Positions 210 through 20,281 of a DNA stretch of 64,000 nucleotides are shown here, piece by piece. This DNA comes from Candidatus Methylomirabilota bacterium (GTDB lineage Bacteria; Methylomirabilota; Methylomirabilia; Rokubacteriales; CSP1-6): positions 8,454 through 72,453 of the forward strand of contig JBKPAK010000024.1 in NCBI GenBank assembly GCA_046726415.1. Direction: 5' to 3'. The notes beneath the pieces are model-generated. The model had not been told where the DNA came from, did not search any database, and worked only from the letters and a program-made list of their open reading frames with translations. How positions within the stretch are numbered: the stretch's first letter is position 1; each line of letters begins with the position of its first letter. A program made the translations under genes and the position numbers.

Positions 210-2201
210 TCACCGCTCCCCTGCTGCCGAGGGACGCGTCGCCGTACCGCTCCCCAGATGCCCGGCGAACCAGTCGAGGATGATCCGAAAGCGCTCCAGC
301 CGGTGCCGCGGCGTCCCCGACCGCGACAGCTCGTGGTTCTCGCCGGGAAAACGCACGAGCATCGCCTCCCGCCCGAGCTTCTTGAGGGCCACGAAGAGCT
401 GCTCGGCCTGCTCGATGGGACAGCGATAGTCCTCCTCCGCGTGAATGATGAGGAGCGGCGTGGTGATGCGCGAGGCGTAGGTCAGCGGCGAGCGCTCGAC
501 GTAGCGCGCGGGGTCCTCCCACGGCAGCACCCCGCCCAGTTCCGTCACGTTGAAGAGGTGGCCGATGTCGCTGGTGCCAAATATGGTCCGCTGATCGTTG
601 ACGGCGCGCTCCGAGCAGGCCGCGCGGAAGCGATCGGTGTGGCCGACGATCCAGCTCGTCATGAATCCGCCGTAGCTGCCCCCCATCACCCCCAGCCGCT
701 CGCCGTCGAGGAAGTCGAAGCGGCACAGGGCTTCGTCGAGGCCGGCCAGCACGTCCGCCACGTCGCCCCCGCCCCAGTCGCCCACCACGGCCCGCGCGAA
801 CTTCTCGCCGTAGCCACGGCTTCCGCGCGGGTTGGCGAAGACGACGGCGTACCCAGCGCCCGCGTAGACCTGGAACTCGTCGAAGAATCCCACGCCGTAC
901 TGCGCATGGGGGCCGCCGTGAATGTTGACGAGGACCGGATAGCGGCGGCCCTGCTCGGCGCCGTGGGGGCGCATCACCCAGGCGTCGACGGCCGCCCCGT
1001 CGCGCTCGTAGCTGAAGCGCTCGGGCACCGAGAGCGACACTTCCTCTCGCCACCCCCGGTTCAGATCGGTGAGCTGGCGCTCCGCGCTCCCGTCCGCAGC
1101 GGCGACGAAGACTTCGGCCGGCGCAGTGGCCGTGGACGCGGTGAAGGCCAGCATGCCGTTGCGCGCCAGCGAGAACCCACTCACCGCGCGCTCGCCCCTC
1201 GTCACGGGAACCGGTTCCATCCCGCCGGCGGGGCGCACGCGGTGAATGACCACGCGCCCGCCGTCCTCGACCGCGAAGATGACCCACTGCCCGTCGGCGG
1301 ACCACGCCGCCCACGCATCGCCCAGGGCCACCACGGAGCGATCGATCCGGGCGCTCAGATCACCGGGGGCGCCGCCGTCTATCGGGATGGTGACGAGGCG
1401 GTGGTTGTCGGCCACGGCATTCCGTCCGCGCCGCACCACGTAGGCCATCGCGCGCCCATCGGGTGACACGGTCGGCCCCGTGACCATGGCCGACGAGTCG
1501 GTGAGTCGCCGGAGCTCACCGCCATCCGCGGAGACCACGAACAGGTCTCGCGCGTCGTCGTGATCGCGCTCGGCATGGCGGGCCGACGTGAAGGCCAACC
1601 AGCGCCCGTCGGGCGACCAGGTCGGCTCGCCGTCGGCGCCCTCGCCGTCCGTGATCTGTCTGGGCGCACCGCCGTCGCGGTCCACCACGAAGACGTGAGG
1701 TACCCGGTCGTAGATGAAACCCTCGCCGTTGTAGCGGTACTTCAGGGTCGTGATGATTCGCGCGGGCTTCGACTTCTCCGCCCCCTCCGTAGGCGCCGGA
1801 CCCACGCGGGACACCACGGCCACCCGTGAGCTGTCCGGCCCCCACGCGGGGGCCGACACGCCATGGGGCAGATCGGTGATGCGGACGGGCTCCCCGCCCC
1901 CGGCCGGCATCACGTGAAGCTGCGGCTTGGCCTTCGGATCCCGCGCGGCGAGGAAGGCCAGCCACGCGCCGTCGGGCGACCAGCGCGGCGCCGTGTCCCG
2001 GCCAGCACCCGTCGTGAACCGCCGGGGCTCTCCTCCGGCGACGTCCACCACCCAGACGTTGGAGAGGTACTCGTCGCGCTCCTCGGAGAGCGTCGTCACC
2101 ACGAACGCCACTCGGCGACCGTCGGGCGAGATCTGCGGGTCGCTCACCCACTGAATACGGGTAACGTCGGCGGCCGTCATGGCGCGTCCATGCGTGGTCA
2201 T
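210..2201 (-). CDS. S9 family peptidase (acylaminoacyl/dipeptidyl aminopeptidase)
   Basis: Repeated WSPDG propeller motifs, IHGGP, GGSYGG nucleophile, EDYRCP, ENHEL. Confidence 0.92.
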   Translation of the reverse strand: MTTHGRAMTAADVTRIQWVSDPQISPDGRRVAFVVTTLSEERDEYLSNVWVVDVAGGEPRRFTTGAGRDTAPRWSPDGAWLAFLAARDPKAKPQLHVMPAGGGEPVRITDLPHGVSAPAWGPDSSRVAVVSRVGPAPTEGAEKSKPARIITTLKYRYNGEGFIYDRVPHVFVVDRDGGAPRQITDGEGADGEPTWSPDGRWLAFTSARHAERDHDDARDLFVVSADGGELRRLTDSSAMVTGPTVSPDGRAMAYVVRRGRNAVADNHRLVTIPIDGGAPGDLSARIDRSVVALGDAWAAWSADGQWVIFAVEDGGRVVIHRVRPAGGMEPVPVTRGERAVSGFSLARNGMLAFTASTATAPAEVFVAAADGSAERQLTDLNRGWREEVSLSVPERFSYERDGAAVDAWVMRPHGAEQGRRYPVLVNIHGGPHAQYGVGFFDEFQVYAGAGYAVVFANPRGSRGYGEKFARAVVGDWGGGDVADVLAGLDEALCRFDFLDGERLGVMGGSYGGFMTSWIVGHTDRFRAACSERAVNDQRTIFGTSDIGHLFNVTELGGVLPWEDPARYVERSPLTYASRITTPLLIIHAEEDYRCPIEQAEQLFVALKKLGREAMLVRFPGENHELSRSGTPRHRLERFRIILDWFAGHLGSGTATRPSAAGER

Positions 2202-2366
2202 GAGAAGGCTCCCCTGATGATACGTCCACGGAAGACTGGTCGCGAGGCGCTACGTCCCTCGATCGAATGACCTCGGGGCGACGTGGTCGAAGATGTCGGA
2301 AACTCTACGGAAAGCTCCGTCGCGCTTTCTCACCCGGGGCGGTGAGCGGGAAGCGGTACGGTCTCG

Positions 2367-3563
2367 CTAGACGATGCCGCGCGCGCGGAGGGCCGCGAGG
2401 TCGTCCTGCGTCAGGCCGAGGCGGCCGCAGTAGATGTCCTCGTTGTGCTCGCCCACCGCCACCGGGCCCGCATGATCGATGATCCCGGGCGTCAGGCTGA
2501 GCTTGGGCACGATGCCCACCATGTCGAGCAGACCCCCGAGTGGACTCGGCACCTTGACGATGTTCTCGCGCGCCTGGATCTGCCGATCGGCGAACAAATC
2601 GCGCGCGCTGTTGACCCGCGCGCACGGCACCTCGGCCGCGTCCAGCCGCGCCAGTGCCTCGGGGGCGTCGAACTTCTCCACCCACTCGCCTACGGTGCGG
2701 TCGAGGTCGCCGCGTCGGCGGATGCGCTCAGCCATGGTCGCGAATTCGGTGGCGAGCTGCGGTTGACCGATGGCGTGCGTCACCAGTCGCTCGAACATCC
2801 GATCGTTGGTGCAGGCGATGGCGATCCAGCTCCCGTCGCGCGTCCGGTAGTGGTTGTGGGGCACGACGTACTCGGTGCCGGATCCGATGCGGTCGCGCAC
2901 GTGACCCGTGGCGGCGAAGACGGGAATCAGCTCGTCCAGCATTCTCAGGATGGGCTCGTAGAGCGCCACGTCGACCACCTGCCCATCGCCCGTGCGCTGG
3001 CGATGCTGGAGGGCGACGAGCGCGCCCAACGCGCCCATCGCGCCGGCGAGGTAATCGGGAATGGTGGGCGTGCCCGGAGTGACCGGCGGACGGTCGGGGA
3101 ACCCGGAAAGGTAGCTCGCCCCGCTCACCGCGGCGGCGATGCGGCCAAAGCCGGGACGCTCGCGCGCAGGACCTGTCTGGCCGAAGGCGGAGATGCGCAC
3201 CATGACGAGCCCACGGTTGACGGCGCGCAGATCGTCCCACCCGAGATGCCAGCGCTCCATGGTGCCAGGGCGGAAGTTCTCGGCCAGGATGTCCGATTGC
3301 CCGGCGAGGCGCTTGATGAGCGCTTGCCCTTCCGGCTCGCGCAGATTGCACGTGATCGACTTCTTGTTGCGCGACTCCACCAGCCACATGTAGGTGGGCC
3401 CGCCGTCTGGACGGCGGCCGAGACGCCGGAGGTCATCGCCCAGCCCAGGCTGCTCCATCTTGATGACCTCGGCGCCGAACTCGCCGAGCAAGGTGCAGCA
3501 GAACGGCGCCGCGATGAACGTGGCCAGATCCAGCGCGCGGAGCCCTTCGAGTGCGCGAGTCAC
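2367..3563 (-). CDS. CoA-transferase family III (CaiB/BaiF)
   Basis: LGEFGAEVIKME, RNKKSI, ENFRPG, PDYLAG. Confidence 0.92.
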   Translation of the reverse strand: MTRALEGLRALDLATFIAAPFCCTLLGEFGAEVIKMEQPGLGDDLRRLGRRPDGGPTYMWLVESRNKKSITCNLREPEGQALIKRLAGQSDILAENFRPGTMERWHLGWDDLRAVNRGLVMVRISAFGQTGPARERPGFGRIAAAVSGASYLSGFPDRPPVTPGTPTIPDYLAGAMGALGALVALQHRQRTGDGQVVDVALYEPILRMLDELIPVFAATGHVRDRIGSGTEYVVPHNHYRTRDGSWIAIACTNDRMFERLVTHAIGQPQLATEFATMAERIRRRGDLDRTVGEWVEKFDAPEALARLDAAEVPCARVNSARDLFADRQIQARENIVKVPSPLGGLLDMVGIVPKLSLTPGIIDHAGPVAVGEHNEDIYCGRLGLTQDDLAALRARGIV

Positions 3564-3643
3564 GTGGTCTCCTCCGGAGTGCGGCGTCCATTGTGCAACG
3601 AACCGTGGCCATTGTGCACCGAGCGGTGTGAGGGCCGCCGCCC

Positions 3644-11794: not shown

Positions 11795-12400
11795 TTATAG
11801 GTAGTCCTCGTCTGGCACCCATCTGACCTCCTCTGCCCACAGCGAGGCGGCTTCATAAATGATATGAAGGACCGGGTCCTTGAGGAAAAGATACCCGTCG
11901 ATGCTGTCCGGGAAGAGCTGGGACGCTCGGCGTTTCAGGAGTTCGTACTCGGCGCGAACGTCGTTCGATGCGCGAAGATAGTCGCGGGATAGGAGCGCAT
12001 ACCGCTGGTTGAACCGCCCAAGTTCTCGGACATGGATATGGGCTCGACGCTCACCCTCCGGCTCCCGCATGTAGAGCTTGCGCAACTCCGGATCTGTTTC
12101 GGGCTTGCGGTGAAAGAAATCGCACTCAAACGCAGTGCCCTGACGAAATCCCGCGGCGCGGAGGGGGTTCGTCAACCCGTCGGCGGCGTCCAAGTCGGCA
12201 ACGGTGATCTGGATATCGATGACATCCTTCGCGCCAAGGCCGGGAATGGCGGTAGAACCGATGTGATCGATCCGAATCGCCGCCTGCCCGACCACGTCGC
12301 GGATGTGTCTGGCCATCTCCGTGAACTCGTCCACCCAGTGGGGCTGATAGGCGGTCACCACCACCGGGCGGGACTTTCTCGTGAGGTCGAACTCCGGCAT
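11795..12400 (-). CDS. GrpB/UPF0157 family nucleotidyltransferase-fold protein
   Basis: From MPEFDL: IDHIGSTAIPGLGAKDVIDI, HIHV, RDYLR, YELLK; longer ORF in track overlaps the upstream gene. Confidence 0.85.
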   Translation of the reverse strand: MPEFDLTRKSRPVVVTAYQPHWVDEFTEMARHIRDVVGQAAIRIDHIGSTAIPGLGAKDVIDIQITVADLDAADGLTNPLRAAGFRQGTAFECDFFHRKPETDPELRKLYMREPEGERRAHIHVRELGRFNQRYALLSRDYLRASNDVRAEYELLKRRASQLFPDSIDGYLFLKDPVLHIIYEAASLWAEEVRWVPDEDYL

Positions 12401-12468
12401 CGCGCTTGCCGTAGCGTCCAACGCACCGCCGAGGGCGGTCGGCTGGTCGCCGGGCGTTCCGCGCAACC

Positions 12469-13674
12469 TCAGATCACGCCGTCGGCCTTGAGCCGCTCGA
12501 GGTCCTCCGGCCCGAGGGCCAGCCATTCCTTGTAGACCTCGGCGTTGTGCTGGCCGAGCAGGGGGGCGGGCTGGATCTCTGTCGGCGATCTCGAGAGCTG
12601 CACGGGGTTGCCGGGCATGGTGAACTCCCCCCAGCCCGGATGCTGAATCGTCGTCACCATGCCCCGCGCCTTGAGGTGCGGGTCGGACAGGATCTCGGTC
12701 GGCGTGAGGCAGGCGCCGGCGGGCACACCGGCGGCGCCCAGCTCGGCCATGACTTCGTGCTTGGTGTGGGTCATCGTCCAGCGCTCGACCAGCGCATTGA
12801 CCTCGTTCTTGTGAGCGCCACGCCAGCGGGGATCGGACCACTCCGGATGGCCGACGAGGTCTTCGCGGCCGATGGTGCGCAGCAACGCGTCCCACATGTG
12901 ATGGCGCACCGGCTGCGGATAGATGTAGGCGTAGTCGTCGGGGCCGCCCGGCTTGCACCGGTAGATGCCCGAGGGCGCGGTATTGGCGATTTCGTTGCCA
13001 CGGCGAGGCTCGAAGTCACCCCCGGCGTAGGCCAGCCGCATCGCGATGCGACAGAGGTTCACCACGGCGTCCTGCATGGACAGCTCGACCCGCTGGCCCC
13101 GACCCGAGGCCTGCCGCTGCCACAGCGCAGCCATCACGCCGAAGGCCGCGTGCACGCCCGTGCCGGAGTCGCCGATGGTCGGCCCGGGCTTGAGCGGTGG
13201 GGAGCCGGGGAAACCCGTCAGGGTCATGGCGCCCCCGGTAGCCTGGGCGATCATGTCGAAGCTCTTGTAGTCGCTGTACGGACCGTACGTGCCGAAACCC
13301 TTGACCGACAGGTAAATCAGCCGCGGGTTGATGACGGCGAGCGCGTCGTAGCCGAGGCCGCTCTTCTCCAGCGCCCCCGGCGCCTGGTTCTCGGCGAGGA
13401 CGTCCGCCTGCTTGACCATCTCGAGGAACATGGACTTGCCTTGCGGATGCTTGAGGTTGAGCGTGATGCTTCGTTTGTTGGCGTTGAGCGTGAGAAAGTA
13501 ACTGCTGTCCACGCCAGGCTTCTCGGCGCGGCCGTAGCGGCCGGGGTCGCCCTTGGTGGGCTCCTCCACCTTGATGACATCGGCGCCCAGCCACGCGAGG
13601 AGCTGGGTGCACGACGTCCCCGCCTCGAACTGGGTCAAATCCAGGATGCGAATGCCATTGAGCGCGTAACTCAT
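12469..13674 (-). CDS. CoA-transferase family III, formyl-CoA transferase-like
   Basis: [40 protein letters not shown]. Confidence 0.92.
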
Positions 13675-13801
13675 CGTTCGGGCTCCTCACGGATGGAGTC
13701 GGCTCTTCCGGCATGATCCGCCGGCAGCCTGCGGCATGATACCCGCGCACCGCAGCGCCGGGCAATGCCTTGCGCCGAGGACCGAGGCTTCAGCGGCGTG
13801 A

Positions 13802-16453
13802 TCAGCGGTTGCCGTAGATGCGGCGGTACTCGTCCCAGGAGAGCATGACGCGCTTGACGTAGTGGCGCGTCTCGTCGAACGGAATTTGCTCGACGAAGAC
13901 TTCGAGGTCGTCGCTGCGCCGAGCCTGCCACCACTGCCGCGCCCGCCGGGGCCCGGCATTGTAGGCGGCGAGGGCCAGCCGTGGATCGCCGAAGCCTCGG
14001 AGAAGCCCCGCCAGGAAGTTCACTCCGAGTTCGATGTTGGCCTCGGGCTCGTCGAGGAGATCGCCGCCGCGGAACGACCATCCGCGCAGCGCTGCCATGG
14101 GTTGCGCTGTTCCCGGCATGAGCTGCATGAGGCCACGGGCCCCCGCGCGGGAGACGGCGCGGGGGTAGTAGCTCGACTCCTCGCGCACAACCGCGGCCAC
14201 GAGGAATGGGTCCACGCCAACCCGTTGGGCGGCGTCGGTCACCTCGGCGCGCCAGGCGAAGGGATACAGCATCTCCCAGAAGGCGCGTGGAATCGAGGGA
14301 TGACCGCTCGAGGCGAGTCCCGCGAAGTTCCGGCGCATGATCCGGAGCGCGAGATGGTAGCGCTCGTCCTCCACGTAGGCGCTGGTCAGTCCGTAGAGGC
14401 GCACGGAATCGCCGGCCGAGCGCTGGACGACATCGTCCAGCGCGACGAGGGAGAGGTCGATCAATCCGAGGCGCCGCAGCAAATCGATCCGTTCGAAGCC
14501 AGGGTCATTGGCGAGCGCCTCCCGCGGATCGGCCGGCAGGCGAATCGCCGGATCGGCGGGATCGCGAGCCGGCTCATGCGGTGTGTCCAGCCGGCGCCCG
14601 GCGAGCGCGCCGTAGTAGCTGCGGGGCGCCTCGGCGACGAGGCGCCGGTAGAGGCGCTGGGCGGCGTCGTGGGCGCCCTGTCGGTCCTGGGCTCGCCCCG
14701 ACCAGTAGAGAGCTGCCAGGCGGTGCGCGCCACCTCCGGCAGCTTCTGGCAGGCGCGACCAGCTCTGCTCGGCCGCCCGGATCTCGCCGCGGAGGTAGGC
14801 AAGCCACCCGAGACGCCACAGAGCCGAGCCGGCCACGTCGCGGGTGGGAAAGCGGGTGGCCAGTGAGCGGTATGTCTCCTCGGCGTCGACATCGCGGCGA
14901 AGATCCTCCAGGAGCCGCGCCCGCAGATACATCGCCTCGGAGGAATCGGCGTCGCCGCCCCGGGCGCCCACTGCCGCGAGAATCGCCAGCACCCGCTCCT
15001 TGCCGTCCTTGGCATCCTTGCCGTCCTTCTGCGGCCCGCGCAGGAGAAGTCGGGCCTGCTCGAGCTGGAGACCTGGCTTCCGGTCAGCAGGCGCTCGCGC
15101 CACGGCCAGCTCAATGGCTCGCGCGGCCATGTCATAGCGCCCCAGGCGCTGCGATGCGTCGGCCACCACTCGCAGCGCGCGCACCGCAATCCCGACGTCC
15201 TGGGCATCCGAGGCGATCCGCTCGGCCTCGTCGGCCGCGATCTGCGGCACGCCGCCCCGCAGGAGACGCTCGGCGCGGTCGATCCGCTGCTGAAGGGAGA
15301 GAGGTGCCATGCGCACGCCCGAGCTCGCCAGCCCCGCCAGGCGGTCACCGGCTCCCGACGCATATCCCGTGCTTGGTGCCACCAGGGTCAGCTCTCGATA
15401 GGTCGCGGCCGCCGCCTCCGGATTTCCGAGGGCCTCGGCGGTCATACCGAGCAGATAGAGCGCCTCGGGAAGTTCTGCGGCGTCAGGGTAGTCGGCGATC
15501 AGCCGCGTCAGTAGCTCCTGGGCTCTAGCCTCTTCTCCGGCCCGTGAGGCGGCCCACGCCGCGACGACGAGCGCGCGGGGGGCGAGACGGCTCTGGCGAT
15601 GGTGGTCGGCCACGCTGGCGGCCATGTCGCGCGCCGCGAGCCAATCACCTCGACGCGCGAGGGCATCGGCGAGGAGCCAGCGCGCGTAGTCGGCGATGGG
15701 GCTCGAGAGAGCGGCGGGCGTGTTCATCGCGTCCAGGAGCGGCCCGGGGTCGCCGCGCTGGTAGGCGGCTACGGCCTGCGCCCACGTTCGCTCCACGGAG
15801 GGCGACACTGCGGGTTCGGCCGTGGCCGCAAGTGGCGTCAGCGCCAACGCCGCCACGATCGCGCCGCGCAGCAGGGTGGCGTCACGGGTGGCCCGCCAGG
15901 TGAAGACGATCCGCTGGAGCGCCGTGAGGTTGGCGAGAACCGCCAGCACCCACATCGCGGACTCCAGGAGATCGAAGAGGGCTCCGGCGATGAGACAGAT
16001 CATGCGCTCGGGGCGCTCCATGAACCCGATCGTACACTCGACGCCGATGGACGCCGCGCGAGCCTTGGTGTAGCTCACCATCACCGTGCCCACCAAGCCG
16101 GCCATGGCCACCAGGGCGCCCCGGGTGTGGGGCGTGCGCGCGAACAGGACCACGATGGCGAGCAGGATCACGATATCCGAGTAGCGGTCGATCACGGAAT
16201 CGAGAAACGCGCCGAACGGGGTCACCATCCCCGAGGCGCGGGCCAAGGCGCCGTCGAAAAAATCGCACAGACCGGCGAGGACGAGCAGCGCCCCACCCGC
16301 CCGAAGGTGCCCGGTCACGAAGGCCGCCGCCGCCACCAGGCTGATGCCCAGACCGATGAGGGTCAGATGGTTGGGGCGCAGCCGAAGGCGAAAAAGCCCA
16401 CGGCCGATGGGTTCCGACCACACGCGGGCGGTCTCGCGATAGCGACTGATCAC
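13802..16453 (-). CDS. Fusion: CDP-alcohol phosphatidyltransferase (PIP-synthase-like) + TPR repeats + soluble lytic transglycosylase
   Basis: N-term DFFDGALAR...GAFLDSVIDRYSD, SYTKARA, GFMERPER; C-term VREES, GARGLMQL, AAYNAG, IPFDETRHYV. Confidence 0.88.
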   Translation of the reverse strand: MISRYRETARVWSEPIGRGLFRLRLRPNHLTLIGLGISLVAAAAFVTGHLRAGGALLVLAGLCDFFDGALARASGMVTPFGAFLDSVIDRYSDIVILLAIVVLFARTPHTRGALVAMAGLVGTVMVSYTKARAASIGVECTIGFMERPERMICLIAGALFDLLESAMWVLAVLANLTALQRIVFTWRATRDATLLRGAIVAALALTPLAATAEPAVSPSVERTWAQAVAAYQRGDPGPLLDAMNTPAALSSPIADYARWLLADALARRGDWLAARDMAASVADHHRQSRLAPRALVVAAWAASRAGEEARAQELLTRLIADYPDAAELPEALYLLGMTAEALGNPEAAAATYRELTLVAPSTGYASGAGDRLAGLASSGVRMAPLSLQQRIDRAERLLRGGVPQIAADEAERIASDAQDVGIAVRALRVVADASQRLGRYDMAARAIELAVARAPADRKPGLQLEQARLLLRGPQKDGKDAKDGKERVLAILAAVGARGGDADSSEAMYLRARLLEDLRRDVDAEETYRSLATRFPTRDVAGSALWRLGWLAYLRGEIRAAEQSWSRLPEAAGGGAHRLAALYWSGRAQDRQGAHDAAQRLYRRLVAEAPRSYYGALAGRRLDTPHEPARDPADPAIRLPADPREALANDPGFERIDLLRRLGLIDLSLVALDDVVQRSAGDSVRLYGLTSAYVEDERYHLALRIMRRNFAGLASSGHPSIPRAFWEMLYPFAWRAEVTDAAQRVGVDPFLVAAVVREESSYYPRAVSRAGARGLMQLMPGTAQPMAALRGWSFRGGDLLDEPEANIELGVNFLAGLLRGFGDPRLALAAYNAGPRRARQWWQARRSDDLEVFVEQIPFDETRHYVKRVMLSWDEYRRIYGNR

Positions 16454-16456
16454 GGC

Positions 16457-19123
16457 TCAGAGGGGGCGCGTGAGCGCGTCGCGCAGGGCACCGTGGATGC
16501 GCTCGATCCCGTCGGGGTCTTCGACCTTCTGTCCCTTTCCGTCATGGACGTAGAAGGTGTCGAGGGCCTTGTCGATCTCGGTGGCGATGCGGGCGCTGGC
16601 GATGTCGAGGCCGAGCGAGGCCAAGGTGGCGGTGATCAGGTAGAGCAGGCCGACGCGGTCGGGACACTTCACCTCGACGAGGGTGTAGTCGTCGGAGAGC
16701 TGATTGTCTATGACGACCTTGGGGGGCGTCAAGGACGCCTGGTTACCCGATCGCTGCCGGCTGGCCAGCAAGGCCGCCACGTCCTGCTTCCCCGCGATCA
16801 CCGCCCGCAGCACGTCGAGCGTACGCGACCATTGCACGACGGAGGTCACGGCCTCCCCGGTGGGATCGTTCACCTGCAGCGTGTCGATGGCGATGCCATC
16901 GGCCCGGGTGTGGATCTGGGCGGAGGCGATGTTGATCCGGTGCGCCGCCAGCGTGCCGGCGATGAGGGAGAAGAGGCCGGGCACGTCACGGGCCACCACC
17001 ACGAGGTCAGACGTGCCGAGATCGGGATGATGGAAGAGCTGGGTCACCACGGGTTCGTGGTCCAGCCGCCGCAGCATCCCCAGGTGTTCAGCCATGCGCT
17101 GGACGCTGGTCGTGGCCAGATACCGATCCGACACCATCGCCACGTGGGCCCGCGCGGCCTGTCGCGGCACTTCGTCACCGGCGTGCGCGGCGAGGCGCTC
17201 CACGAGCTGGGCCCGCGGGGGGCGCACCGCGCGGCCGTCAGTCAAGTGTCGAAGGGTGCGGCCGTACAGTTCGTGCAGGATCTTGGCCTGCCAGGGCGTG
17301 AGGACCCCCGGGCCAACTGCGCGCATGTCGGCGTACGTGAGGAGATAGAGCATGCGCAGGCGTTGGGGGGTCCCGACCACACCCGCGAAGTTGGAGATCG
17401 TGCGCGGATCGTCGATGTCGCGCCGCTGGGCCACGTGGGACATCGTGACGTGATGGGCGACCAGGAACTCGACCAGGGCCGCGTCGGCGGCCGGCAGCCC
17501 GAGACGCGCCGTCAGCGCGCGAGCCATGGGGATGCCCTTGGCCACGTGCCCGTGTCCCTTGGCCTTGCCAATGTCGTGCAGGAGCATGCCGAGCATGAGC
17601 AGCTCGGGCTTCTCCACCTCGTGGAAGACGAGGGCCGCGCCCTCTGATTCCGCCGACTGACCCGGAGCCAGCGCCTCGAGATGCTGCACGGCGAGGAGCG
17701 AATGTTGATCGACCGAGAACTTGTGGTAGACGTCGTACTGCACGAGGCAGGTCAACGCGGCGAACTCCGGCAGGTAGCGTCCGAGCACCCCCAGCTCGTG
17801 CATCTCCGAAAGCGTTTCGCCCACGCGGCCCCAGCGCCGGCAGATGTCGAGGAAGACGTCGCGCTCGGCTGGGTCGCGCTGCATTCGCTCGTCGATGACG
17901 TCCAGGGCCTCTTCCAGGCTGCGCTCCAGGTCGACCGACAGCGTGCAGCCCAGCCGATGCATGTGCCAGAAGACCTTCATGATGCGACCGGGTTCCCTGC
18001 GCAGCGCGGCGGGGTCGCGGTCGGCGAGATGCAGCGTCCCATCCAGGAGGACGAGGCCGTCGGCCAGCGCCTGCTGGCGCTGCCGCCGCTCGGCGGCGCC
18101 GCGGCGCGAGAGCGTCTCCTGGCAACGGGCGATGAGGCGCCGCGACAGGCGGTGTATGGCCCGCGCATGGAAGTAGTAATCGCGCATGAAGCGCTCGACG
18201 CCGAGGCTCTGCTCGCCGTCCTCGTAGCCGAAGGCCTTGGCGATCTGCGGCTGGACATCGCGCGAGAGCACGTCGTTTTTGTGGCCAGCCAGAAAATGCA
18301 GCTCGTTGCGCACGCGCCACAGGAAGGTCAGCGCGGCATCGGTGACCGCCTGCTCGCGGAGCGTGATCAGCCCCTTGTCGGTCAGCTCCCGCAAGGTCCG
18401 GGCGCCGAACTTGGCCGCGCTGAGCCACATGGCGGTGTGCATGTCCCGCAGGCCACCGGCCGATTCCTTGACGTTGGGCTCGCCGATGTACGGCGAGGCG
18501 CCGTACTTGCGATAGCGCTGGTCGCGCTCGCCCAGGGTGGTGGCGAGGAACTGGCCGAAGTCGCGCCGGAAGACGTTGTCGCGGAGGACCCGGCGGAAAC
18601 GCGCGAAGAGTCGCCGATCCGCGGTGACGAAGCGGGCCGCCTGCATCGAAGTCAGGCTCGGGAAGTCCGTGCGGGCGATGGCCACGCAGTCGTCGAGAGA
18701 GCGCACGCTGTGACCGATTTGCAGGCCGAGATCCCAGAGGGTGTAGAGCAGCTCCTGGGTGACCCGCTGCACGAAGGGCGTTCGCTCCCCTTCGTAGACC
18801 ACCATCAGGTCGATGTCGGACGACGGGTGCAGCTCGGCGCGGCCATACCCGCCCAGGGCGACCACCACGAAGGGCGCCGGGGCCAACGCTGTCGCGTTGG
18901 CGACGATCAGACGGACGAGGGCGCGGATCAGATCATCGACCAGCTCCGCGTGGGCGCGCACCGACTCCCCTCCCGACGCACCCTCCGCATGCTTGAGCTT
19001 GAGGGAGTCGAGTCCCTCGGCGAGTGCGGCGCGGAAGAATTCGAGTCGCAGGCGCCGCCGGTCCTCGATGCGCTCGGCCTTCGCCTCCGCGCGTCGGGCC
19101 CGGCGATACAACTCGGGCGACAT
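16457..19123 (-). CDS. glnD: [Protein-PII] uridylyltransferase
   Basis: ALGGYGRAELHPSSDIDL, EPNVKESAGGLRD, HD domain (YHKFSVDQH, LLHDIGK), two ACT domains. Confidence 0.96.
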   Translation of the reverse strand: MSPELYRRARRAEAKAERIEDRRRLRLEFFRAALAEGLDSLKLKHAEGASGGESVRAHAELVDDLIRALVRLIVANATALAPAPFVVVALGGYGRAELHPSSDIDLMVVYEGERTPFVQRVTQELLYTLWDLGLQIGHSVRSLDDCVAIARTDFPSLTSMQAARFVTADRRLFARFRRVLRDNVFRRDFGQFLATTLGERDQRYRKYGASPYIGEPNVKESAGGLRDMHTAMWLSAAKFGARTLRELTDKGLITLREQAVTDAALTFLWRVRNELHFLAGHKNDVLSRDVQPQIAKAFGYEDGEQSLGVERFMRDYYFHARAIHRLSRRLIARCQETLSRRGAAERRQRQQALADGLVLLDGTLHLADRDPAALRREPGRIMKVFWHMHRLGCTLSVDLERSLEEALDVIDERMQRDPAERDVFLDICRRWGRVGETLSEMHELGVLGRYLPEFAALTCLVQYDVYHKFSVDQHSLLAVQHLEALAPGQSAESEGAALVFHEVEKPELLMLGMLLHDIGKAKGHGHVAKGIPMARALTARLGLPAADAALVEFLVAHHVTMSHVAQRRDIDDPRTISNFAGVVGTPQRLRMLYLLTYADMRAVGPGVLTPWQAKILHELYGRTLRHLTDGRAVRPPRAQLVERLAAHAGDEVPRQAARAHVAMVSDRYLATTSVQRMAEHLGMLRRLDHEPVVTQLFHHPDLGTSDLVVVARDVPGLFSLIAGTLAAHRINIASAQIHTRADGIAIDTLQVNDPTGEAVTSVVQWSRTLDVLRAVIAGKQDVAALLASRQRSGNQASLTPPKVVIDNQLSDDYTLVEVKCPDRVGLLYLITATLASLGLDIASARIATEIDKALDTFYVHDGKGQKVEDPDGIERIHGALRDALTRPL

Positions 19124-19133
19124 GTCGGGGTGA

Positions 19134-19186
19134 AGGGTAGCAGTGGCCGACGAACACTGTCAAACCCAGGGCCAACTTACTAGAAT
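19134..19186. promoter_or_regulatory. Divergent sigma70-type promoters of glnD and hisC
   Basis: Minus strand TTGACA (19158-19163), 18 nt, TACCCT (19134-19139); plus strand TAGAAT (19181-19186) 6 nt before hisC ATG. Confidence 0.5.
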
Positions 19187-19192
19187 TCAGAC

Positions 19193-20281
19193 ATGCGAGA
19201 CATCTGGCGGCCCGTCCTCGGCAGCATCACGCCGTACCAGCCGGACAAATCCCTGGAGGCCCTGGCCAGCCAGCTGGCGCTCCCGGAGTTGATCCGACTG
19301 TCGGCGAACGAGAACCCCCTCGGCCCCTCGCCACGCGTGGTGGCCACCATCGCGCGCGAGGCCAGCCGCGTCCATCTCTACCCGGACGGCGGCAGCACCG
19401 CCCTGCGCAAGGCCCTGGGCCATCGCCTAGGCCTCTCGCCCGAGCAGATCCTCGTGGGCAACGGCGCCGACGAGCTGCTCACCTTGCTGGGGCTTGCCGC
19501 CCTCGAACAGGGCGACGAGGTGCTGCTACCCCTTCCCTCCTTCGAGGCCTACGCGACTATCGCGCTGCTCGGCGGCGCTCGCCCGGTGGCCAGCCCCCTG
19601 ATCGGCTACGACACCGACCTCGACGACATGCGGCGCCGCATCACCCCGCGGACGAAGATAGTCTTCGTGTGCTCGCCCCACAATCCGGCGGGCACGATCG
19701 TCTCCCGCAGGGCGCTGACGGCGTTCCTCGAGTCACTCGCCGACGATCCGCCCCTGATCGTGCTCGACGAGGCATACCGGGACTTCTGTGACGACCCCGA
19801 GTACCCGGATGGCGTGGCCCTGCTGGCTCGATATCCGCGCCTGCTCGTTCTGCGCACGTTCTCGAAGATCGCCGGTCTGGCCGGCCTGCGGGTGGGATAC
19901 GTGCTGGCCAGCCCCCAGGCCATCGATCGGCTCGACCGGGTGCGCGCGCCTTACAACGTGAACCGGCTGGGCCAGGTCGCCGCCGTGGCCGCCCTCGAGG
20001 ACGAGGATCACTGGCACAAGAGCCGACAGCTGGTCATCGAGGAACGCGCGTTCCTCTCCCAAGAGCTGGTTCGCCGCGGCTTCCGCTTTCCGCCATCCCA
20101 AGCCAACTTCATGCTCGTGAAGGTGCCGGACGGCGCCCTCGCCCGCGAGCGGCTTCTGCGAGCCGGCCTCGTCGTCCGCGACGGCGCGGCCCTGGGCTTT
20201 GCCAACCACCTCCGCATCTCGATCGGTCTGCGCGAGACCAACGAGCGCCTGCTCGCCGTCCTCGACTCCCTCCCCCGATGA
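19193..20281 (+). CDS. hisC: Histidinol-phosphate aminotransferase
   Basis: LSANENPLGPS, YPDG, GNGADE, DEAY, RTFSKIAGLAGLRVGY. Confidence 0.94.
   Translation: MRDIWRPVLGSITPYQPDKSLEALASQLALPELIRLSANENPLGPSPRVVATIAREASRVHLYPDGGSTALRKALGHRLGLSPEQILVGNGADELLTLLGLAALEQGDEVLLPLPSFEAYATIALLGGARPVASPLIGYDTDLDDMRRRITPRTKIVFVCSPHNPAGTIVSRRALTAFLESLADDPPLIVLDEAYRDFCDDPEYPDGVALLARYPRLLVLRTFSKIAGLAGLRVGYVLASPQAIDRLDRVRAPYNVNRLGQVAAVAALEDEDHWHKSRQLVIEERAFLSQELVRRGFRFPPSQANFMLVKVPDGALARERLLRAGLVVRDGAALGFANHLRISIGLRETNERLLAVLDSLPR

Follow-up and report, generated by a model that had tools for sequence, protein, structure and literature searches.

Can a lipid synthase that works at the cytoplasmic face of a membrane and a peptidoglycan-cleaving enzyme of the periplasm be encoded by one continuous reading frame, and if so, how would the second half reach the other side of the membrane? 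This question is raised by an open reading frame (ORF) in a 64,000-nucleotide stretch of the genome of a Candidatus Methylomirabilota bacterium (assembly GCA_046726415.1, contig JBKPAK010000024.1, positions 8,454 to 72,453), hereafter referred to as the window. A preliminary description of this DNA had interpreted the ORF as an in-frame union of a CDP-alcohol phosphotransferase of the phosphatidylinositol-phosphate synthase (PIPS) type with TPR repeats and an Slt-like lytic transglycosylase. Indeed, we found a single uninterrupted minus-strand frame that encodes both a PIPS-like and an SLT part (Table 1). The explanation that we favour overall, and consider very probable, is a genuine lineage-specific fusion of two neighbours in a glnD/PIPS-like/TPR+SLT gene array, which became fixed in one clade of the Rokubacteria family to which this genome of an uncultured soil bacterium belongs.

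A fused reading frame and its relatives

Pfam analysis of the ORF placed CDP-OH_P_transf at aa 26-172 (E 1.6e-15; 58.2 bits versus a gathering cut-off of 22), several TPR families spread across aa 267-612, all above their gathering cut-offs, and SLT (PF01464) at aa 740-848 (E 7.6e-27; 93.7 bits versus a cut-off of 21.3). The phosphotransferase assigned earlier to aa 1-190 was borne out by the PF01066 match together with a complete CDP-alcohol signature, and the assignment of the remainder to TPR repeats and an Slt-like domain with a catalytic Glu in an REES motif agreed with the TPR and SLT matches. A search of a 5.8-billion-protein collection with the full-length protein (E<=1e-3, length band 485-1546 aa) returned 1697 matches. 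The best 120 of these 1697 all carry PF01066 as well as PF01464 at 55-99% identity, and query coverage is 100% in 115 of them. Those with a named source belong to Candidatus Rokubacteria, Rokuibacteriota or Methylomirabilota, and the only names given to the fused proteins in public records are 'transglycosylase SLT domain-containing protein' and 'soluble lytic murein transglycosylase'.

In order to assess how far the two halves are conserved, we aligned the window protein with 66 homologues of 62-82% identity to the query. The phosphotransferase residues D64, D67, G68, A71, R72, G81, D85 and D89 were invariant in all 67 sequences, as were the transglycosylase residues E759, S760, G771-Q777, A829 and Y831-G834, with A830 at least 90% conserved. 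Because the catalytic motifs of both domains are invariant among the aligned homologues, both halves are under purifying selection.

A six-frame search of 251 Methylomirabilota genomes (E<=1e-20; tallies include the unpublished genomes G216 and G217) detected the N-terminal domain in 168 of them. Among the 150 matches listed (23 more lie beyond these), 81 share at least 69% identity with the query, and 74 of these 81 lie in open frames of at least 802 aa, where frames run from stop to stop and may be lengthened upstream by chance. The other seven occupy frames of 254-577 aa, that of G190 being situated at a contig end. Most of the listed matches at or below 66% identity are found in frames of about 194-331 aa, apart from four of 520-852 aa. 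The condition that, according to the preliminary description, would have spoken against the fusion, namely two separate genes in all close relatives, does not hold: the nearest relatives have the fused gene, and split genes occur only at greater distance.

Frameshifts are visible in a few database entries (P0121, P0123, P0189, P0214, P0246 and P0265), and a sequencing error, an assembly fault or a gene-calling artefact might likewise have joined two separate genes at the junction. Against this stand the same open junction in the best 120 homologues, which come from many sources, and the 74 genome matches in long open frames. In addition, the junction region (15500-16500) is spanned by contigs of two independent soil runs, X3 (1 substitution) and X5 (4 substitutions), both with 0 indels; contigs of soil run X6 tile the stretch in short pieces, and run X4 contributed nothing to it. 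A joining artefact thus has next to no probability, and the fused ORF is a genuine gene, with an assembly artefact excluded.

At one locus of a genome of the same genus (L010 in G164, about 2134-3581), tblastn recovers the TPR portion of the fused gene as three pieces, each in a different frame. This pattern suggests frameshifts by assembly error or decay, yet a 955-aa open frame was reported around the N-terminal domain of this locus.

Table 1 Coordinates of the fused gene, its parts and its neighbours in the window
Feature	Position	Strand	Description or basis
Whole fused ORF	13802..16453	minus	883 aa + stop (13802-13804), GTG start
PIP-synthase-like CDP-alcohol phosphotransferase domain, aa 1-190	15884..16453	minus	Pfam PF01066; N-terminal helix + six transmembrane helices
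CDP-alcohol signature D64xxD67G68xxAR72...G81xxxD85xxxD89	16187..16264	minus	Alignment of 67 homologues
Junction, aa 187-212, relic Sec signal peptide of the SLT gene	15818..15895	minus	Sequence pattern, AlphaFold2 model, orthologue alignment
Pro-rich linker + TPR-like superhelical region, aa 213-~700	14354..15817	minus	TPR_6/TPR_2/TPR_8/YfiO matches, AlphaFold2 model
SLT catalytic domain, aa 740-848	13910..14236	minus	PF01464
Codon of predicted catalytic Glu759 (E-S motif)	14177..14179	minus	E759, S760 invariant in 67/67
glnD (PII uridylyltransferase), upstream neighbour	16457..19123	minus	Pfam GlnD_UR_UTase, HD and ACT domains
Family III CoA-transferase gene, downstream neighbour	12469-13674	minus	PF02515, E 3.5e-114

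Split relatives and the origin of the fusion

When shorter proteins were searched with aa 1-200, many of the matches were contig-end fragments, and genuine proteins of about 195-210 aa with 55-69% identity were also recovered; these end directly after an FTxRxxR motif. We compared 13 loci with such a standalone homologue of about 200 aa by tblastn. In 12 of them, glnD is followed on its own strand by the PIPS-like gene and then by the TPR+SLT gene, whereas at the thirteenth (G228) the SLT orthologue is located on another contig. In the 12 contiguous split loci, the PIPS-like and SLT genes are 3-109 nt apart and share a reading frame in six; the distance from the PIPS-like stop to the first possible SLT start is 3, 9, 9, 19 and 19 nt in five split loci. 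The split SLT genes, which occur in sister lineages of the same family and order, encode signal-peptide-bearing TPR+SLT proteins of about 690 aa that start with ordinary Sec signals (e.g. M-R-R, a hydrophobic stretch, V-R-A, and then A-G-P).

Standalone SLT orthologues from a second library, of 1.84 billion representatives (659-709 aa, 42-49% identity), align with their residues ~24-28 onto aa ~201-210 of the query. Because the alignment thus runs from their signal peptide onto this part of the fused protein, the standalone signal peptide corresponds to its internal segment. Moreover, because both genes adjoin downstream of glnD in 12 of the 13 split relatives, the linker is the former Sec signal of the SLT gene itself.

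In a quick maximum-likelihood tree of 118 N-terminal domains (the split rows L032 and L033, missed by the motif filter, were left out), all 67 fused N-domains grouped together in a single clade (SH-aLRT 96), to which none of the 11 genome-verified split rows belongs. The fused clade also contains nine short metagenome proteins, first taken as split because of their length. Seven of these end before or inside the hydrophobic segment and represent truncated fused genes, and P0142 diverges within this segment, which suggests a frameshift. P0195, the only short protein in the clade with a standalone-type tail, weighs against the favoured explanation; it is possibly a secondary split or a tree error. 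The library of 1.84 billion representatives revealed no fused form outside the clade among its top 150 matches: P0241 was the sole full-length match, P0242 a partial fused form, P0246 and P0265 were frameshifted, and the others start at or after the signal segment.

The simplest history is a single event in which two closely adjoining genes lost the stop codon and the intergenic codons between them. The fusion itself is probably near-neutral. The genes were already tightly spaced and often in frame, so that the loss of a stop and a few codons sufficed.

The gene order extends to glnD, whose stop codon TGA (16457-16459) lies 3 nt ahead of the GTG start of the fusion gene, the distance already noted in the preliminary description. 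This position of glnD, directly ahead of the PIPS-like gene, is shared by each of the 13 split loci and by each of the loci L009-L020, a set of 12 that consists of the locus in the window, those of 10 fused relatives and L019, which a contig end cuts short. Throughout this set of 12, 2-5 nt separate the two genes, and glnD invariably terminates at a stop of its own. A triple fusion including glnD, for which open frames of 1780-2150 aa were considered, is ruled out by this stop in 12/12 loci; because glnD retains it, these frames are chance-open alternative frames in DNA of 70% GC.

A scan of 12300-19600 for promoter-like sites, as consensus matches only, identified one between the fusion gene and the CoA-transferase gene (13765-13736, minus strand) and none between glnD and the fusion gene. 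Terminator-like sites in the same interval numbered 2 against a chance mean of 2.0, with none above chance between glnD and the fusion gene. Co-transcription of the fusion gene with glnD is plausible in view of the short spacing in 12 loci, whereas the proposed tie to nitrogen sensing, drawn from gene order only, is speculation.

Two further proteins, P0337 (1040 aa) and P0340 (1056 aa), combine an N-terminal IPP transferase (MiaA-type, PF01715, E about 1e-83) with TPR and SLT parts, and constitute another candidate fusion between a cytoplasmic enzyme and a periplasmic transglycosylase.

Predicted activities of the two halves

AlphaFold2 (AF2) models the N-terminal domain as an N-terminal helix (aa 2-22) followed by helices at aa 27-46, 50-74, 79-106, 110-135, 147-159 and 163-189, in agreement with the hydropathy peaks. 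Its best PDB matches are the mycobacterial PIPS structures 6h53/6h5a (E 3e-23, aa 10-188), and further matches include 6wm5, Renibacterium PIPS, AF2299 and IPCT-DIPPS; the closest structures are all inositol-phosphate-using enzymes, and the match to PgsA reaches only E 1.5e-4. The SYxxARA and GxxERxER stretches that had first pointed to this enzyme type are present as SYxKARA and GFxERPER and align to 6h53. In the accessible part of PMC6506517, which words the CDP-alcohol signature as D1xxD2G1xxAR...G2xxxD3xxxD4, residues R94, R152, R155, R195, K135 and R137 of M. tuberculosis PgsA1 are described as lining the proposed inositol-phosphate pocket, with a conserved sulfate held by S132, R155 and R195, and Y133 probed by mutation. 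Based on the 6h53 alignment, PgsA1 R94, S132, Y133, K135, R137, R152, R155 and R195 correspond to R90, S127, Y128, K130, R132, R147, R150 and R181 of the window protein. The domain likewise retains all metal-binding residues of mycobacterial PgsA1. Within the fused family, each of the eight mapped residues is either invariant or conserved to at least 90%; like the CDP-alcohol signature, they are present in 13/13 split relatives, four of which have R in place of K130.

The genome, which is 98% complete, contains seven PF01066 matches, namely two PgsA-like, two PssA-like, two weak DIPPS-like and the fused gene, which is the only close PIPS-type homologue among them. It also encodes an inositol-3-phosphate synthase (C8:91948-93078; PF01658, 126.7 bits) that scores 517.5 bits with TIGR03450, below the mycothiol-specific cut-off of 638, and an inositol-phosphate synthase was detected in 150 of the 158 genomes of the family. 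We propose that the N-terminal domain most likely makes phosphatidylinositol phosphate (PIP); at the cytoplasmic face, its 190 aa would use CDP-diacylglycerol and inositol phosphate as substrates.

Several observations weigh against this assignment. The NCBIfam models for archaetidylinositol-phosphate (AIP) synthase (NF040950; 165.6 bits, cut-off 180) and PIP synthase (NF045883; 129.3 bits, cut-off 170) both scored below their curated cut-offs, and we therefore call the domain PIP-synthase-like and not an equivalog. In sister family f2, 19 of 21 genomes have the PIPS-like gene, and its loci L029 (G228) and L030 (G240) keep all pocket and all catalytic residues; an inositol-phosphate synthase, however, was found in only 1/21 genomes with PF01658 and in 0/5 with PF07994 (a poor marker here, as it gives no match in the window's own genome although PF01658 detects the enzyme), which weakens the inositol link. 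Furthermore, a frame of at least 679 aa on contig C311 of the window's own genome (G000; about 1-2214; L007) has a C-terminal CDP-alcohol phosphotransferase domain that is weakly IPCT/DIPPS-like (69.5 bits versus a cut-off of 580), and its product could be an alternative consumer of inositol phosphate.

An enzyme with another acceptor or donor, either AIP-synthase-like or with a novel head group, would account for the archaeal AIP synthase model being the best NCBIfam match and for the retention of the gene in family f2, mostly without a detectable inositol-phosphate synthase. We nevertheless regard this as unlikely, given the conservation of all eight proposed PgsA1 pocket residues, the use of inositol phosphate by all of the nearest solved structures, and the presence of inositol-phosphate synthase in the genome itself and throughout most of its family. 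It is harder still to believe that the synthase domain is a catalytically dead relic that merely anchors the transglycosylase in the membrane. Polytopic anchoring alone would keep the ORF open, and nothing specific speaks for such a role; in contrast, all eight signature residues are invariant in the 67 homologues, the pocket residues are invariant or at least 90% conserved, and the genome is without another close PIPS-type homologue. PIP synthesis therefore remains our preferred assignment for the N-terminal half.

For the C-terminal half, the best PDB matches were P. aeruginosa Slt (5ohu/6fbt, E 1.2e-26), with further matches to Neisseria LtgA (5o1j/5mpq) and E. coli Slt70 (1qsa, E 1.9e-23). 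AF2 predicts an all-helical structure from aa 220 onward with pLDDT mostly above 90, and from aa ~580 onward the TPR-like region aligns to the non-catalytic part of the Neisseria and Pseudomonas Slt structures. The SLT domain contains E-S and the lytic transglycosylase motifs GLMQ (G774-Q777) and AYNAG; we take the Glu of E-S to be the catalytic residue of family-1 lytic transglycosylases. Because the score for the Slt70 equivalog NF008631 (107.9 bits) is far below its cut-off of 536, this half is, judged from its sequence, an Slt-like family-1 lytic transglycosylase and not Slt70 itself. The genome encodes three other SLT-domain genes. In the periplasm, the TPR superhelix and the transglycosylase with Glu759 would, as we infer from homology, cleave peptidoglycan glycan strands.

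The junction: export, cleavage or tether

According to the accessible part of PMC6506517, the PIPS fold consists of six transmembrane (TM) helices around a cytoplasm-open cavity, into which a C-terminal loop reaches. With both the cavity and this loop on the cytoplasmic side, the C-terminus of the synthase should be cytoplasmic, and therefore one extra membrane passage is needed, and sufficient, to place the SLT part outside. The junction reads FTWRATRDATLLRGAIVAALALTPLAATA, followed by EPAVSP, with A212 ending at nt 15818. It is made up of the basic residues R187, R190 and R196, a short hydrophobic core, P207, A210-T-A212 and E213-P214; the signal-peptide-like linker recognized earlier is thus confirmed in its positions and in its basic, hydrophobic and small-x-small pattern. 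The segment starts at about aa 187, after the six TM helices, and not at the N-terminus as a usual Sec signal does.

The segment shows little sequence conservation among 120 fused homologues, while its pattern is retained. Median net charge is +3 over the 14 residues that precede the core and -1 beyond it, and the Pro-free hydrophobic core has a median length of 11 aa (interquartile range 10-15), reaching at least 18 in 11/120. A Pro often precedes the small-x-small triplet by a few residues, and a Pro-rich spacer frequently follows the segment. The typical h-region of a signal peptide spans about 7-15 residues, and the cores of three standalone SLT signals measure 11-13 residues. AF2 assigns pLDDT below 50 to aa 189-213 and a single four-residue helix there; because of this low confidence and the lack of a long helix, the segment is not modelled within either fold.

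In P0242, P0066 and P0093, a spacer of 60-100 residues rich in Pro, Ala, Ser and Thr comes right after the hydrophobic segment; that of the window protein is short.

Together, we propose that a former Sec signal of ~25 residues, with positive charges now supplied by the tail of the synthase, a core of ~11 residues, a small-x-small motif and an acidic Pro-rich stretch, would insert with its N-terminal side in and its C-terminal side out and thereby export the TPR superhelix and the transglycosylase. Export of the C-terminal part by this segment is well supported. As to its subsequent fate, we lean slightly towards cleavage by signal peptidase I after A212, which would yield the same two proteins as in the split relatives, because the core is short and the segment descends from a signal peptide. 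Two features weigh against cleavage. The small-x-small pattern near the end of the core, seen in 81/120 homologues versus 1268/2400 background windows, is only weakly enriched in these Ala-rich proteins, and the whole uncharged run (median 20 aa, KD19 1.94) could form a thin membrane span. An uncut segment that acts as a thin seventh span and tethers the transglycosylase is accordingly a serious possibility, although not the one we would choose. A polyprotein cut by signal peptidase I and a tethered enzyme were the two alternatives already named in the preliminary description.

A more far-reaching proposal holds that the uncleaved seventh span was itself selected, with an active PIP synthase anchoring the Slt-type transglycosylase in the inner membrane such that lipid synthesis and wall remodelling are coupled. 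The single polypeptide would then have been fixed in the clade for siting peptidoglycan cleavage where inositol phospholipids are synthesized, with both activities present 1:1. The length and hydropathy of the uncharged run would fit this proposal, as would the persistence of the fusion through many genera (55-99% identity) with both active sites intact, the adjacency of both genes across the order in 12/13 split loci, and the long, tether-like Pro-rich spacers of P0242, P0066 and P0093. In contrast, the core is as short as that of a signal peptide, the sequence of the segment is not conserved, AF2 shows no packing of it on the six-helix bundle, and the split relatives make do with a soluble, signal-peptide-bearing enzyme. 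Nor is adjacency obligatory, as the G228 orthologue on another contig illustrates. We thus consider selection for a coupled, uncut enzyme quite improbable, and for the link between lipid synthesis and peptidoglycan cleavage raised in the preliminary description we found nothing in favour beyond the conserved gene adjacency. A fusion of neighbours whose internal former signal exports the transglycosylase remains the preferred reading of the locus.

Novelty and comparison with known systems

No description of a PIPS-SLT fusion was found in the open-access library searched, and PMC12419801 has, in its accessible part, no bearing on it. The fused protein combines known parts in a new domain architecture, which is unnamed in the public records of its best homologues. 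It clearly illustrates, in a natural setting, how a membrane enzyme that faces the cytoplasm can be joined to an exported one without topological conflict, the signal peptide of the downstream gene having been turned into an internal export segment. Because both states, split and fused, persist among close relatives, the fusion event can be reconstructed step by step. Record names that mention the transglycosylase only hide what is probably the sole PIP synthase of these genomes, and with it a likely ability of Rokubacteria to make inositol phospholipids, lipids that the accessible part of PMC9246714 describes as relatively rare in bacteria. If cleaved, the protein would be a second bacterial polyprotein of a membrane protein and a periplasmic protein that is processed at an internal signal; without cleavage, it would represent an unusual tethered lytic transglycosylase, and a tether selected for coupling would physically and directly connect the synthesis of membrane lipids with the remodelling of the wall, a connection hitherto undescribed.

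The N-terminal half shares with actinobacterial PIPS (PgsA1; 6h53, 6h5a, 6wm5; Renibacterium 5d91/5d92) the six-TM fold, the full motif and the equivalents of the eight pocket residues, aligned over aa 10-188. It differs in scoring below the NCBIfam PIPS cut-off, in belonging to another phylum and in having an activity predicted from sequence; moreover, known PIPS are stand-alone proteins of ~200 aa, whereas the fusion protein has an extra periplasmic extension of 690 aa. The C-terminal half resembles Slt70-type enzymes (1qsa; 5ohu/6fbt; LtgA 5o1j/5mpq) in having helical repeats ahead of a C-terminal SLT domain that carries E-S, GLMQ and AYNAG, and its split orthologues are, like these, ordinary signal-peptide-bearing periplasmic proteins. 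Here, however, it forms the C-terminal part of a polytopic membrane protein, its N-terminal repeats are TPR-like, and it stays far below the Slt70 cut-off.

With regard to the arrangement as a whole, the cytochrome b-c1 protein FbcH of Bradyrhizobiaceae likewise joins, within one ORF, a polytopic protein to a periplasmic one whose own signal peptide lies at the junction. The FbcH precursor is said to be cleaved at this internal signal, as reportedly established by Thony-Meyer and colleagues; a statement of this cleavage was not found in the open-access literature. The fusion of cytochromes b and c1 in Bradyrhizobiaceae is itself mentioned in the accessible part of PMC4986455. In contrast to the present case, the products of FbcH are subunits of one complex; the proteins are unrelated to ours, the PIPS/SLT pair has no known partnership, and its cleavage is putative. 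Finally, IPCT-DIPPS and AF2299 (4mnd, 4o6m) are CDP-alcohol phosphotransferases that are also fused to another domain, and both use inositol phosphate. While their additional domain is N-terminal, cytoplasmic and part of the same pathway, that of the fusion protein is C-terminal, predicted to be periplasmic, and belongs to an unrelated pathway.

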